Source: Jimgerdemannia flammicorona
Taxonomy: Eukaryota
DNA: 39,591 bases
Assembly: GCA_003990765.1 (NCBI GenBank)
Contig: RBNJ01000138.1
Coordinates: forward strand, 1-39,591
Direction of reading: 5' to 3'
The translations under genes were made by a program, and so were the position numbers. Positions 20,964 to 36,811 of this stretch are shown piece after piece. The notes under the pieces are model-generated. The model did no database searches. It saw nothing but the letters and a program-made list of their open reading frames with translations, and was not told where the DNA came from. Each line of letters opens with the position of its first letter. The first letter of the stretch is position 1.

Positions 20964-22469
20964 TTATTTATCAGCTTTAAAGTATACCTCATAAATTCTT
21001 GCACTTATCCCCGCCATAACCTTTGGTCCCATTGCACTGTATATCATCATCTGTTGTTTGTCATCACTATTTAAAATGCTATATGCTGCAAACAGATTGC
21101 TGAGTGTATGGTAATATGCAGCTATCTTCTGTGCCTTGGCAAATGAAACTCCATGTACAGTTGCGAGCATTGCTGTAAAGACATGCTGAAGTGTGGCAGC
21201 ATTGGACTTATTGTTCAGTGTGCAATATGCCTGATAGATAATGAAGTATGGTGTTGTGAGATGTTTCTGGAGTGTAAGATATGTGGCTTGGTCGATGTAT
21301 TTGTCTGAGATGCCATCCAGTTGCTGGGTTTCCATTTTCTTCAGCTCATTGTGCAGTGTGGTAAGATAGGTAATAGTGTGATCAGTGCTGGATGTACACT
21401 TGACGAAGAAGCCATCTCTGGTCTGTATGGTGGAGATTGCCGATGTGATTGCCTGTGGATTGAATGCATCGACCACCACAGAATCATATTCCTCAATGAT
21501 ATACACAACCCGGTCTGCACCAGAGCACCTCAGCTGTGCCTTCTGCTCTGCAAAGCATCCATCCTTCATACTGGCCACCAGATCATCCATGTGCTTCCAT
21601 TCAATGATCCAGTTCAGCACCAGTTCCATCTTGTCACTATGCCGACGTGCGATCCACACAATGTCTCCAAGCTCCAGTGCATGCACCTCCACCTTGACAT
21701 GATGTTTCTGCAATTGTGTATAGATATAGTTGTGGTTGGCAATGGACCTGATCTTGTGGGAATCGAGGATGAGCACCATATCAAATGTGCCAGGGTAGAA
21801 TATAGTGGGTGTGATGGACGGGAATGATGGCCTGCCTTCCTCTCCTACTACCTCTGTCTTTTCCGCTGCTTGGGGCTGTCTGGTCAGGTGCTGTACCAGC
21901 AGTGCTCCAGCATCTGTCAGAAAATACTTGGCTGGATTGCTGTTTTTGATAACCAATCCTTTTGTCACCAGACTACTCAGTCCTGACAATGCAGCTCTAT
22001 CACAGTATAGCTGTGCAAGGGTTTCGAGCTCCTTCTTGGCAATGTGGACATCAGCAGCATGCAGAGCCACAAGAATAGCATATGGACTACTGCGTAGCCT
22101 GGGAGTGTAGGAATGGGGTATGCTACTAGCAGCAGGTAAAATGGAGGTACATTTGTTGTGATCCAAGAGCCATTTAGTCAGCTTGCTGACTATCTGTAGA
22201 CCAATACCATTCAGATGGCATGTATCTTGTAGTGATGTGAAGGGAGAGGGATGGTGTAGAATGACATTGTGGACCTGTAGAGCTTGAAGAATATCAGTAT
22301 TAAAGATTATGTTTAAAATATTACATTTTGCAGTATGTATATTGACCTTTTGATATAAATAGTATGCCTTAGATCCAGTGGCCTGTGCTTTGTGTATGTG
22401 CTCTGCAAGACATGCCAGATAGAGTGGGTTTGCACAGGACACATGGGTTGATTTTGGTATTGGTGGCAT
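20964..22469 (-). CDS. MUS81: MUS81 crossover-junction endonuclease (catalytic motif decayed; likely non-functional)
   Basis: CANPLY...HhH LNGIG; winged helix YTPRLRSSPYAILVAL; ERCC4 LILDSHK, LELGDIVW, IIEWKHMDDLVASMKDGCFAEQKAQL (ERK..DL..S..DGRF.EQK.RL with Arg>Trp/His/Cys/Gln); C-terminal HhH GVSFAKAQKI. In-frame 72-nt intron at 22275-22346. Confidence 0.95.
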   Translation of the reverse strand: MPPIPKSTHVSCANPLYLACLAEHIHKAQATGSKAYYLYQKVNIHTAKCNILNIIFNTDILQALQVHNVILHHPSPFTSLQDTCHLNGIGLQIVSKLTKWLLDHNKCTSILPAASSIPHSYTPRLRSSPYAILVALHAADVHIAKKELETLAQLYCDRAALSGLSSLVTKGLVIKNSNPAKYFLTDAGALLVQHLTRQPQAAEKTEVVGEEGRPSFPSITPTIFYPGTFDMVLILDSHKIRSIANHNYIYTQLQKHHVKVEVHALELGDIVWIARRHSDKMELVLNWIIEWKHMDDLVASMKDGCFAEQKAQLRCSGADRVVYIIEEYDSVVVDAFNPQAITSAISTIQTRDGFFVKCTSSTDHTITYLTTLHNELKKMETQQLDGISDKYIDQATYLTLQKHLTTPYFIIYQAYCTLNNKSNAATLQHVFTAMLATVHGVSFAKAQKIAAYYHTLSNLFAAYSILNSDDKQQMMIYSAMGPKVMAGISARIYEVYFKADK

Positions 22470-22503
22470 ACTGATTATTGCACAAGAGTCTGGCCACCAT
22501 GAC

Positions 22504-22513
22504 TATTTAAATA
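22504..22513. promoter_or_regulatory. Palindromic TATA element between divergent MUS81 and dUTPase-like ORF
   Basis: TATTTAAATA is a perfect palindrome, 35 bp from the MUS81 ATG and 18 bp from the opposite ORF start. Confidence 0.45.
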
Positions 22514-22530
22514 CTGCAAGTATCCCCACC

Positions 22531-33347: not shown

Positions 33348-34730
33348 TCCAATATGAATGTTTTTAGAAGATAATATATAAAATGTTGATATTTATACAA
33401 TGGCCCCAGTACCATTGAACTGGTGGAACTGGGTCCAGCTGGTCATGAGAAGGCAGGCAAGAGCATCTTGGTCTGCCAGACGACCAGTCTGAGATGCCGA
33501 GTCTACACCCGGCTTTGGCAAGGGTGTCAGACTCAACAAAGGGCTTAGCTAACAACTAGTCACATGAAAAGAGTCCAAAGTCCAGGTAGAGACCAGGTTT
33601 GCAATGCCCCAGCCTGGTGGACTTTTGTGGTCCACTTAGACTGGAGCAATCCTCTGTGGAAGGCAATATACAGACAACTATGCCTAAGTAGCCCACCTTG
33701 GGTCCAGTCTATCAGAGGTGATGGTGGCCAAGAGCTTCTTGGTCCACTGGGTGGGTTGGCCTGAGAATTTGACTCAGCGAGGTATGAGGCAATATGATGC
33801 AGGTCAGAAATGAGGCAGTCAACTGCATCAGAAAATGGGCAGTATGACAAATGTCCTTTATATTACAATATTTTATGGTTGGGGTGGGATTTACAAAAAG
33901 AGGTATAGGATACATTAGCACTAGATTTAACCAAGTATATTTTCAGTACAACCTTGGCTGTATTCATCTTTAATTATCCCACATCCCTGCCAATGACATC
34001 CATCCTGCCGAGTTACATAGATTGCACCAATCTGTGATCATGCGGAGTATGCAGCACCCCTTTATAGCTGGCGGTTGGTATAGCTGCGAGTGCGATAGAT
34101 TACCACTAACTCTGTATCTTACACCTCATTTACAATCCTTTGATTTAATTACAGGTGGCAAGTCTGCTGAATAACAAAACACTACCATTAGGCTCTCTGA
34201 CTTTTGCATTTTTACTGTAAAAATACAAAGAGACATTTTGTATGAGTGCATGTTGATGAGATGAAGGGTGGATTCAATGATATATACATGATATCAGCAG
34301 GGGGTACAGAAATGTGGGATCCGCAGATGATATTATCGAGAGTAAAATGGGGCTATGTCATATCCCACCCCCTGAAAAGCTCAAATGGCACCTGTTTACA
34401 CTGTCAAATCTCTGAGCCCCATGTTCCATGATTAGTAAGACAATCGCCATCAGATTGAACATATTGATCCGATATTACTAATAAACAAATATCTGCAAAA
34501 TTCAATTAAATGGTATTTTTGAGCAGTGTAAGAAGCATTGAAAAATGTTAACACAAATAACCCCCCCAATAACCAGTCTGTCATACATCAGATCCTCATC
34601 ACTCTTCCAAGCAGCAATCTCAAATCCTGCACCTGTATTAAACCACTGCTCCAATAGCTCAGATCACATGATTTGTAAGATCATGCAATCTTTCAGATCT
34701 TTATCTTTTATTATCCAAATACACAGAATT

Positions 34731-36030
34731 TTACAACCTTGCTCCAAGTAATATTTCTAGTGTGCTCCTTACTGCAGTCTGTTCTGCATCTGTTTTTTTG
34801 GAGGCAGTACCACTGCCAACAATATTACCAATTGCACATGTTGTAGTAAAGACTGGTGCATGATGTGTCCCTGTCTGATTATGCTTATACTTTGCACTAT
34901 CAACCACCAATCCACAGTTGTATAGGGTCTGCAGTACCCCTTTGTAGTTGGCAGTTGGTATAAGGCTGGCAACTGCCTGCATTGGTAGAAGTGCGGTAAA
35001 ACCAGCCATGCAGGATGACCTTGGTAGTAGTGGCAGTGAGTTACCTCTCTTATGTTTAAGTGGTTGTTTAGACTCAGGTCCAGTATCACGTTTTTGTACA
35101 AGCTGCAACAAGCATTGACATGCTCTATTCTTGGTCATCTTCCTTATCTGGCCCTTAGCCTCTTATACCAGGTTTTCATCTCTGATTGTAATACTCGCAT
35201 GAGCCATCCACCCATCCCTTGTTATAGTATAGGTAACATCGAGTCCCTTCTCCATACCATCATGGTAATGGCACTGTAGATAGATATCCAGCTCATTGGT
35301 ATATAATATCCTTGGATCCTCTGGTGACACATTTGCAATCTCTGCCTTAATGCTGTCAGAGAGATACCTATCGAACCAGACATGGGCATGGACATCAAAA
35401 CAACTATACAGGAATCGATCCACAGCTTGCTGTCCAAACAGGCGATCTATCACACTAGAGACAGCAGAAACTGTTATACAGAGATTCATTGTACAAAATA
35501 CCAGACCAAATATTTGATTCTGTATACACCTTATCAAACTCTCCATGATGTTTGCCAGCTGTTTGTTTCTGCCTCTACCAGGCTGGACTATGACCCACTT
35601 ATGTACACCAAAGGTCATGGCCAGATCTCTAGCCCCTACTTATTAGCCACCATATACTGTCGCCTGGCTGTCAGGCATCCAACATCCTCGCCAGAGAAGT
35701 GCTGGCTCAACCAGCGAGTTGCTGCCAGGCTTAGTAGCGTATCTCCCTCCCACTTCAAATTCTGCAGAAGGATAAGGCTGTCTCAGTACACTTGCTCCAT
35801 TCACTCGTCCACAACAAAATGAACATTAGTATGCCCACCTTGTTTGTTATCATATCCCCCAGAACTGGTTTGGATGATGGATATGTAAATGCCTCTATAA
35901 ACAGGGGGTCCATACTATCACTGTATATGGGTAAGTTCCCATCCGGTAGTCTGACCAGACCAAGAAAGCTCCATATAAATGATTTGAATCCTTCTGATGC
36001 TCATATAGTTGTATAGAATACTTGAGACAT
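34731..36030 (-). pseudogene. Class-1 RNase III with two dsRNA-binding domains (one intron, one frameshift, stops)
   Basis: Exon 1 FKSFIWSFL...LFIEAFTYPS...ITNK; intron 35762-35838; NLKWEGDTLLSLAATRWLSQHFSGEDVGCLTARRQYMVANK (ERLEFLGD...EG.LT..R..LV.N). Frameshift ~35642, then NKQLANIMESLI; dsRBD-like ..AKGQIRKMTKNRACQCLL; dsRBD NYKGVLQ..GTHHAPVFTTTC..GSGTASKKTDAEQTAVRSTL. Confidence 0.85.
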
Positions 36031-36100
36031 AGTGTGCAGGGTGCGGGGTATATGCAATCCACTGGTATATATATTTGAGAGATATCTGATTATACAAGCA

Positions 36101-36811
36101 CTAAATACTAGCTAACATAGTAGCCAATGGGCTATTTATCTTAAAGTCGGGTTCAGTATGCCCAAATATGAGATATACACGTATGGATACTGCTCTGTCA
36201 ATCATGTGCTCCAGGGTAATGTGGATGCATGCAAGCAGCTCTTGGGGATTAGAGAGTGTATTATACACCTCCCACAGACTACGTACAGTAGGATATGTCT
36301 GTACTATAGCAGTTGCAATAGCATCAGACACACTATGTATCTGTCTCAGCATATGCCACCATATATCTGCAGCATCTAGACCAGAGTGGATTCTGGGAGC
36401 TACTGCATGCTCATCATCTGCACCGATATCTCCCAACAGTTGTGCAATCCACTGTACAGTCTCCTCTGCATTGTATGTCTCGACAATGTGACATCGGTAT
36501 ATCATCTGCAGCTGAACAAGCTGCTGGTCGAGAATCCCCAGGCCTTGCACAATGTACCAGATGTGTCATCCTGGAAAACAATCCTGTATCCTTTTGGCAT
36601 GCTCGTGAAGATTTACAACCTTGTCTATTACTACCAGAACACTGGCATCACCGCGAGGCTCCCATATGATGGTATATTCTACTGGATGGTCTACACCAAA
36701 TACCACAGCCTCATACTGCATGAGCTTCTCCTATATCAGCCCTCCTAACTCTGATGCTAGAAGGCTGTGCTCAATGTACACTTTCAAGTCAATGAGTTGG
36801 TTGAGGGGCAT
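36101..36811 (-). pseudogene. EME1: Minimal EME1/Mms4-like subunit (MUS81 partner)
   Basis: One 236-codon frame from ATG 36811 with two stops: YIVQGL, DQQLVQLQM...HIVET, WWHMLRQIHSVSDAIATAIVQTYPTVRSLWEVY...LLACI...VSIRVYLIF...PD. Confidence 0.8.

Follow-up and report, generated by a model that had tools for sequence, protein, structure and literature searches.

Contig RBNJ01000138.1 of Jimgerdemannia flammicorona, a fungus of the Endogonales (Mucoromycota), carries within its 39,591 bp (hereafter called the window) genes related to both subunits of MUS81-EME1, a textbook enzyme. This contig is probably a dead, C-to-T-hypermutated copy of a packed gene cluster that includes a MUS81 of cellular type and an EME1 reduced to its core. 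The genes of the cluster can be identified, their breaks can be located, their mutations run in one direction and they are colinear with a sister copy. What is new is a family of EME1 proteins of about 230 amino acids (aa), the fact that one of its members is linked with a compact MUS81, the set of genes found around both and a strongly one-sided C>T pattern in a fungus of the Mucoromycota. The two subunit genes lie on the same strand, 13.6 kb apart, in agreement with the distance of about 14 kb given in an earlier note made from the letters of this DNA.

The two subunit genes

The minimal EME1-like gene (see Table 1 for the coordinates of all features) is a member of a family of short proteins. 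Once its two in-frame stops are read through as X, its frame matches the Pfam profile EME1-MUS81_C above the cut-off (E-value 3.4e-9) and the Pfam profile ERCC4 below it (E-value 1.2e-4). P0011, an intact homologue of 231 aa, shares 49% identity with this frame over 96% of its length, and an exhaustive HMMER search with P0011 retrieved 187 proteins (E-values up to 0.001). The full-length short members (220–250 aa; P0015, P0016, P0020, P0022 and P0029) have a common start and a common end. The family begins at a conserved M(P), lacks the long N-terminal region and includes about 10 lineages sharing less than 55% identity. The long relatives (392–1174 aa) match it exclusively over their C-terminal 130–150 residues. 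The lack of a long N-terminus, which the earlier note had pointed out for the window gene, is thus a property of the whole short family.

Several independent comparisons place the product of 36101–36811 in EME1. When a profile of the short family is run against solved structures, EME1 ranks first (1e-15, 61 bits), ahead of zebrafish Mus81 (3.6e-12, 49.5 bits), human MUS81 (1.6e-7, 34.3 bits), EME2 (6e-7, 32.4 bits) and FAAP24 (14.5 bits). The same profile gives 80–114 bits with the long EME1-type proteins, 36 bits with the window MUS81 and at most 57 bits with viral nucleases. Its alignment with the long EME1 proteins is split into three blocks (about 6–52, 61–93 and 92–228) between which the long proteins carry insertions, so that the short form can be viewed as a bare nuclease-like core followed by HhH2. 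One of these long relatives, P0032, matches human EME1 over both domains (E-value 1.4e-20). EME1-MUS81_C was found in all 24 long relatives scanned, a low-scoring and stretched ERCC4 in 19 of them and the N-terminal domains of MUS81 in none. The strict motif ERKxxxD is present in all eight MUS81 proteins (P0001–P0008) versus 1 of the 54 other sequences screened (up to P0064), this sole carrier, P0038, having it at residue 600, outside its own ERCC4 stretch (683–868); it is absent from all the short-family members screened.

The AlphaFold2 model of P0011 (mean predicted local distance difference test score, pLDDT, 77.8; predicted template modelling score 0.53) consists of a mixed strand/helix domain and then a helical domain. 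Foldseek searches with this model place EME1 or EME2 chains at ranks 1–5 (E-values 5e-14 to 2e-11), and MUS81 chains come next. A degenerate copy of MUS81 and a partner of the ERCC1/FAAP24 type were also considered, and both are ruled out by the profile rank, the fold rank and the absent catalytic motif. By its sequence and by the predicted fold of its relative, the protein is thus classified as an EME1.

The earlier note had described the gene as an EME1 of 236 codons. The likeness to EME1 is borne out by Pfam, profile and fold; the open gene is not, as it is interrupted by a TAG at codon 27 and a TGA at codon 82. Both stops fall in conserved coding columns of the family alignment and are therefore nonsense mutations, not introns. 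Introns that would explain them were considered and rejected, the public model P0010 splicing past the stops by removal of segments conserved in the family. This model (BC938DRAFT_472576, 396 aa, 100% identical to the EME1-like frame), drawn over 36104–37880 on the minus strand, is an artefact of annotating a pseudogene: it joins three unrelated upstream open reading frames (ORFs) to EME1 and drops conserved EME1 segments. Two proteins of another assembly, P0012 and P0001, are likewise read-through or fusion models.

The MUS81 ORF matches the Pfam profile ERCC4 (PF02732) with an E-value of 4.7e-25 (88.6 bits for a cut-off of 24) and solved human MUS81 with an E-value of 6e-27 over residues 221–477. 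The C-terminal HhH2 is present, as the alignment with solved MUS81 reaches residue 477 (human) or 496 (zebrafish); the Pfam model EME1-MUS81_C gives a weak, sub-threshold match (E-value 0.0078). The N-terminal Pfam models stay under their cut-offs in the window protein (25.8 bits against 27 for WH, 18.5 against 30 for HHH_8). The same N-terminal HhH and winged-helix regions score above the Pfam thresholds in P0002, an intact MUS81 paralogue of 455 aa from J. flammicorona (PF14716, PF21136 and PF02732; 44% identity over 99% of the query). The 501 codons of the window ORF include a 24-residue insertion that is missing from every homologue covering that part (alignment with eight sequences). This insertion is probably a spliced intron of 72 nt, and its removal would leave the 477 aa announced in the earlier note, whose identification as MUS81 agrees with the ERCC4 match.

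The catalytic signature GDXnERKX3D is partly lost from the window MUS81: GD is kept (LELGDIVW) and ERK is not, and in addition the conserved DGRF reads DGCF (R305C, C>T type). ERK is retained in all eight relatives (P0001–P0008). P0001, a partial J. flammicorona sequence on a 1.7-kb contig, is 86% identical to the window MUS81 and satisfies the signature, which indicates that the lineage is MUS81 and that the window copy is a damaged member of it. With P0001, P0002 and also P0012 returned by the searches, the window does not hold the only MUS81-type locus of the species; the earlier note had named the opposite case as a possible objection. Further relatives of MUS81 are P0003 (a JGI protein, 49% identity), a chytrid protein (34%) and Microsporum proteins (25–26%). 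In the Atlas, P0002 resembles MUS81 clusters of animals, fungi and plants at 0.93–0.96 and a Nucleocytoviricota-type cluster at only 0.79. A scan of metagenomes for the MUS81 family yielded 60 loci, the best of which reaches 41% identity on a 1.5-kb contig, with no close member and no usable synteny among them. As judged from these comparisons, the window MUS81 is of a compact, cellular fungal type.

The pairing of the two proteins was modelled with residues 221–501 of the window MUS81 and with the intact relative P0011, used because the window EME1 is broken. The predicted complex scores 0.75, the best of three controls 0.00; 51 of 78 solved complexes attain this mark, compared with 2 of 108 mismatched pairs. 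The runs show at least 84% contact agreement, the pLDDT of the partner is at least 82, and the predicted contacts involve the nuclease and nuclease-like domains as well as both HhH2 domains. The short EME1 is thus predicted to pair with MUS81, the model supporting binding without showing it.

One-sided decay and the neighbouring genes

The differences between the window and its relatives are strongly directional. When MUS81 is aligned with P0001, 222 residues are identical and 34 differ; for 29 of these differences the residue of P0001 requires C or G and the window has T or A instead, two are the reverse and three are transversions. All four differences between the window EME1 and P0012 (locus-tag series BC936) are of the C>T type, on the window side. 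The adjacent RNase III gene shows 52 differences, of which 25 are C>T changes on the window side and 5 the reverse. The terminal branch leading to the window sequence in the MUS81 tree has a length of 0.20, that of P0001 a length of 0.029. Such one-sided mutation implies that the sister copy escaped the process or is under selection. A pair of short EME1 proteins, P0016 and P0024, differs mainly by transitions too (25 of 29 differences).

Over the whole contig, the observed/expected ratio is 0.20 for CpG, 1.27 for TpG, 1.36 for CpA and 0.94 for TpA, and that of CpG falls to 0–0.03 in the first 8 kb. The base that follows the 58 inferred C>T sites is G in 23 cases, A in 21, C in 9 and T in 5. 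Repeat-induced point mutation (RIP) of the Neurospora type prefers CpA>TpA and leaves an excess of TpA. The composition of the contig and the contexts of its C>T sites can be explained by methylated CpG undergoing deamination no less well than by this type of RIP. The hypermutation could stem from methyl-CpG decay, or else from a RIP-like process, which would then be at work in a phylum not recognised to have one. RIP-like signatures are presented as unique to ascomycetes by Badet and Croll (2025, PMC12543289). As a separate observation, positions 1–8000 are strand-asymmetric (GC skew +0.18 to +0.25, AT skew -0.09 to -0.20) and the remainder of the contig differs from them in this respect.

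With two stops in EME1 and the change of ERK to EWK in MUS81, the window copy cannot supply a working resolvase. Mutational work on XPF-family nucleases suggests that ERK>EWK would inactivate the enzyme. To judge from its sequence, this MUS81-EME1 copy is almost certainly no longer working.

Pfam scans of the window covered 123 ORFs (9 that begin with ATG and have 80 aa or more, and 114 read from stop to stop with 70 aa or more; E-values up to 0.01). From about 10 kb onward, they revealed a dense cluster that includes two RPA-like genes, a YqaJ-like exonuclease, Pif1, MUS81, histone H3, RNase III, EME1 and an NIF phosphatase (Table 1), together with frames for an ankyrin protein, a SUN-domain protein and an F-box protein. 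Pif1 and MUS81 are arranged tail to tail with 6 bp between their 3' ends, and only 58 bp separate the YqaJ-like frame from the RPA-like one. Like EME1, several of these genes are broken: Pif1 has three in-frame stops (X80, X108 and X117) between its Walker A and GNFYQLPPV motifs, and the upstream part of the RPA70-like gene, to about 18459, is fragmented by frame breaks. The fold region of the histone is near H3.3 and its first ~35 residues depart from canonical H3, a divergence that may be due in part to C>T hypermutation. The Pif1/MUS81 and EME1/RNase III adjacencies are retained in the sister contigs, and P0012 (PF00636 and PF00035) is colinear with the RNase III stretch of the window. An inverted repeat separates the RPA-like gene from Pif1; it may represent the insertion of a small transposon, a promoter common to both genes or a palindrome resembling an origin.

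Three observations underlie the assignment of the YqaJ-like gene. Its match to the Pfam profile YqaJ is weak (E-value 0.054), with coverage of profile positions 2–147 of 150. BLASTP relates it (6e-6) to an ORF of the IMG/VR giant-virus contig L003, which is 216 kb long; this ORF (15144–16418) is itself a YqaJ (6.9e-16) and lies 5 kb from the MUS81-like gene of L003. YqaJ is also found in 22 of the 30 Atlas look-alike clusters of the candidate, including a 351-member Nucleocytoviricota cluster, which is to be taken as a lead only. ISL2EU transposons are said to carry YqaJ as well. Myers et al. (2026, PMC13533422) count the YqaJ recombinase among the core genes of giant viruses.

Table 1. Features of the 39,591-bp window, with their positions, strands and supporting evidence
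Feature	Position	Strand	Evidence or remark
Degraded Ty3/gypsy-type retroelement (reverse transcriptase, RNase H, dUTPase)	ORFs between 1323 and 5979, ~first 6 kb	-	Pfam scan
Crinkler effector N-terminal domain	11434-12087	-	Pfam E-value 9.8e-18; downstream frames without family match
Second RPA OB-fold fragment	13800..14057	-	Pfam REPA_OB_2 1.8e-7
YqaJ-like exonuclease candidate, one in-frame TGA (16093-16095)	15337..16467	-	Weak Pfam match and BLASTP
RPA70-like single-strand-binding protein	16526..17485	-	Rep_fac-A_C 8.2e-11, REPA_OB_2 7.5e-6
Inverted repeat, 102 nt, 84% complementary, 91-nt spacer	18882-18983 and 19075-19176		Between RPA-like gene and Pif1 (divergent)
Pif1-type helicase, broken	19204..20957	+	Pfam PIF1, Pif1_2B, UvrD_C_2
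MUS81 ORF, 501 codons	20964..22469; exon 1 22347-22469, exon 2 20964-22274	-	477 aa if spliced
Mutated catalytic motif EWKHMDD (relatives: ERKRMDD)	21582..21602	-	R291W and R293H, each a change of the C>T/G>A type
Putative 72-nt in-frame intron of MUS81 (GTCAAT...CTACAG)	22275..22346; GT at 22346, AG at 22275	-	24-residue insertion
Weak dUTPase-like frame, no usable start codon	22423..22989	+	Pfam dUTPase E-value 7e-4, below cut-off
Histone H3 variant, open 136-codon ORF	23149..23559	-	Pfam Histone 1.7e-36; top solved match H3.3 2.7e-45
RNase III gene with double-stranded RNA-binding domain, split in two ORFs, directly downstream of EME1	34731..35761	-	Pfam dsrm
Minimal EME1-like gene, 236 codons and stop, now pseudogene	36101..36811	-	Pfam, homologues, profile, fold
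In-frame TGA, EME1 codon 82	36566-36568	-	Column occupied by R, H, Q, W or Y in relatives
In-frame TAG, EME1 codon 27	36731-36733	-	Column coding in other family members
NIF (C-terminal-domain-phosphatase-like) domain ORF	38931..39509	-	Pfam NIF 3.3e-22

Giant-virus homologues and the origin of the cluster

MUS81-like nucleases are encoded by giant viruses at 48 loci of IMG/VR (L001–L048). All 48 proteins are short (median 273.5 aa, range 148–353), keep ERK...D and align to residues about 231–494 only of the window MUS81, with 22–36% identity. A profile search extending 10 kb around these genes revealed an EME1-like partner at none of the 48 loci, the listed matches all being located at the MUS81-like site itself; this suggests that the viral enzyme is homodimeric. 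YqaJ occurs within 10 kb of three of them, and a general linkage between YqaJ and viral MUS81 was rejected on this count (3/48 loci). In a maximum-likelihood tree, the four Jimgerdemannia-type MUS81 proteins group with chytrid and Microsporum MUS81 (support of 100 in the Shimodaira-Hasegawa-like approximate likelihood ratio test), and 46 viral sequences are set apart from this fungal-type clade by a branch of 3.4 (support also 100); the tree results from a quick search with the 46 of 48 viral sequences that were long enough and two named cellular sequences, and it raised long-branch warnings. A giant-virus origin of MUS81 was considered and is rejected by architecture and tree alike. A search of IMG/VR with one pattern found no relative of the short EME1, and exact 8-residue patterns, sensitive to close relatives only, found none of the RNase III, RPA and NIF proteins. 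The literature searched yielded nothing on a viral or element-borne MUS81 and nothing on viral elements of J. flammicorona.

The earlier note had gone on to propose that an element uses the resolvase encoded here. The analysis demonstrates no viral or mobile element, and the proposal fails for the window itself, where this copy is dead, with stops in EME1 and EWK in MUS81. It could apply solely to an ancestral intact element, viral or mobile, that would have encoded a deregulated MUS81-EME1 for branched intermediates, concatemers or integration, and even then it appears possible rather than probable. What speaks for it is the presence of both subunits within 14 kb in a dense replication/recombination block with gene gaps of 6 and 58 bp, a linkage that would exceed chance expectation. 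The clearest relatives of the YqaJ-like exonuclease are viral, and this gene stands beside those of RPA-like single-strand-binding proteins, Pif1, H3, RNase III and NIF. The diversity of the short EME1 family, the transitions that make up most of the differences between the window and P0001 and between P0016 and P0024, as between silenced repeats, and the very occurrence of MUS81-like nucleases in giant viruses point the same way. That the cluster is the relic of a multi-copy large DNA element, and not a set of ordinary host genes, is a view that can be held only tentatively. Its most elaborate form, which is rather less probable, would make the block from 10 to 39.6 kb what is left of a large nuclear DNA element that is new to science, lives in Endogonales and is either a giant transposon or virus-like. 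Such an element would have had its own kit for recombination-dependent replication (a YqaJ-type exonuclease, RPA-like binders, Pif1, H3 and a minimal MUS81-EME1 captured from a fungal host and free of regulation), and its copies would have been silenced by RIP-like C-to-T hypermutation.

A number of observations weigh against reading the contig as a dead copy of the cluster and the cluster as the relic of an element. Among the 123 ORFs scanned, all of 70 aa or more, none was recognised as a capsid, polymerase, packaging ATPase, integrase or transposase gene, and none as one of the hallmarks of giant viruses (major capsid protein, family B DNA polymerase, A32 ATPase, VLTF3 and D5 helicase-primase); the contig may hold just a part of any element. 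Terminal repeats were not found on the contig either. Two genes have small introns of fungal style. MUS81 groups with its fungal counterparts and not with the 46 giant-virus homologues, which are of a different type of ~274 aa, partnerless and on the far side of the tree; short EME1, RNase III, RPA and NIF had no relatives in the IMG/VR pattern searches. The MUS81 frame remains open. P0001 and P0012 may represent the orthologous locus of a second sequenced isolate. As for the predicted pairing, it was obtained with the 49%-identical P0011 and not with the window's own EME1 allele, and its score may reflect nothing but likeness to solved MUS81-EME1 complexes.

These observations would be compatible with plain host paralogues too. 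Short MUS81 and EME1 would then be normal in Endogonales, the contig being a decayed segmental duplicate or a methylated silent region. This explanation, which we also consider somewhat unlikely, agrees with the cellular architecture and fungal grouping of MUS81, with the existence of the intact 455-aa P0002 in the same species, with the fungal-style introns, with the Ty3/gypsy remnant nearby and with CpG depletion accompanied by TpG and CpA excess, the usual mark of methylated DNA. It accounts less well for MUS81 and EME1 being found together with RPA, Pif1, H3 and a YqaJ-type exonuclease, and for the many divergent members of the EME1 family. To our knowledge, host MUS81 and EME1 are normally unlinked and single-copy, and we know of no YqaJ-type exonuclease that is a fungal host gene. 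The spacing of the cluster is also very tight for the genome of J. flammicorona, which we take to be large and repeat-rich. Another possible source of the contig is DNA of another eukaryote or of a virus, co-assembled from a fruit-body sample, as public assemblies of J. flammicorona were presumably made from field sporocarps. This is very improbable: the closest relatives of three of the genes are named J. flammicorona proteins, including P0012 of the BC936 series, and the Crinkler domain and the Ty3/gypsy remnant fit a fungal nuclear genome.

Relation to known systems and significance

Among known systems, the closest parallel is the eukaryotic MUS81-EME1/Mms4 (4p0p, 2ziu, 9f98). Like these, the Jimgerdemannia-type MUS81 has ERCC4 and HhH2 and, in the paralogue P0002, N-terminal HhH and winged-helix regions that exceed the Pfam thresholds, its window partner combines a non-catalytic ERCC4-like domain with HhH2, and the predicted interface uses both domain pairs. 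Unlike them, the short EME1 (220–250 aa) lacks the N-terminal region and the insertions of the nuclease-like domain, and the window genes are physically linked and both damaged. MUS81 is compact too, with 455–477 aa in the Jimgerdemannia type versus 582–613 aa in the named fungal proteins P0004, P0006 and P0007. Human EME2, a short paralogue of EME1 (a chain of 379 residues, 7f6l), is likewise a shortened, non-catalytic partner of MUS81 with a fold and profile match to the short family; it differs by a weaker profile match than that of EME1 (6e-7 versus 1e-15) and by being about 150 residues longer. The MUS81-like nucleases of giant viruses, known from giant-virus metagenome-assembled genomes (GVMAG), share an ERCC4 with ERK...D, and one of the two scanned (L003) has a C-terminal domain of the EME1/MUS81 type. 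Archaeal XPF/Hef (2bgw, 1j24) resemble the short EME1 by their minimal ERCC4 and HhH2, their similar length and the fold match to its model. They are catalytic homodimers, whereas the short protein of the fungus lacks a catalytic motif and resembles EME1 most closely.

The following activity can be proposed for intact copies. They would most likely form an ordinary XPF-family heterodimer in which MUS81 is the catalytic and EME1 the non-catalytic subunit, both being joined through the nuclease domains and the HhH2 domains alike. This dimer would cleave 3' flaps, stalled forks and nicked Holliday junctions. The absence of the EME1 N-terminus suggests that its activity would escape the cell-cycle control normally exerted through this region, and the missing N-terminus would be the sole ground for calling the enzyme deregulated.

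In practical terms, this locus is to be treated as a pseudogenised relic, and as an artefact the public gene model that crosses EME1. The one-sided C-to-T hypermutation bears on the question of RIP-like genome defence outside Ascomycota. The linkage of the two subunits with genes for an exonuclease, single-strand-binding proteins and a helicase would place MUS81-EME1 in a new genomic setting, and the cluster could mark an unknown class of large DNA elements in mycorrhizal Mucoromycota. If active, the proteins of the short family would be the smallest EME1 found here (~230 aa versus 392–1174 aa in the long relatives), and with MUS81 they would constitute a natural core-only MUS81-EME1, which raises the question of what the N-terminal region of EME1/Mms4 adds to the enzyme.

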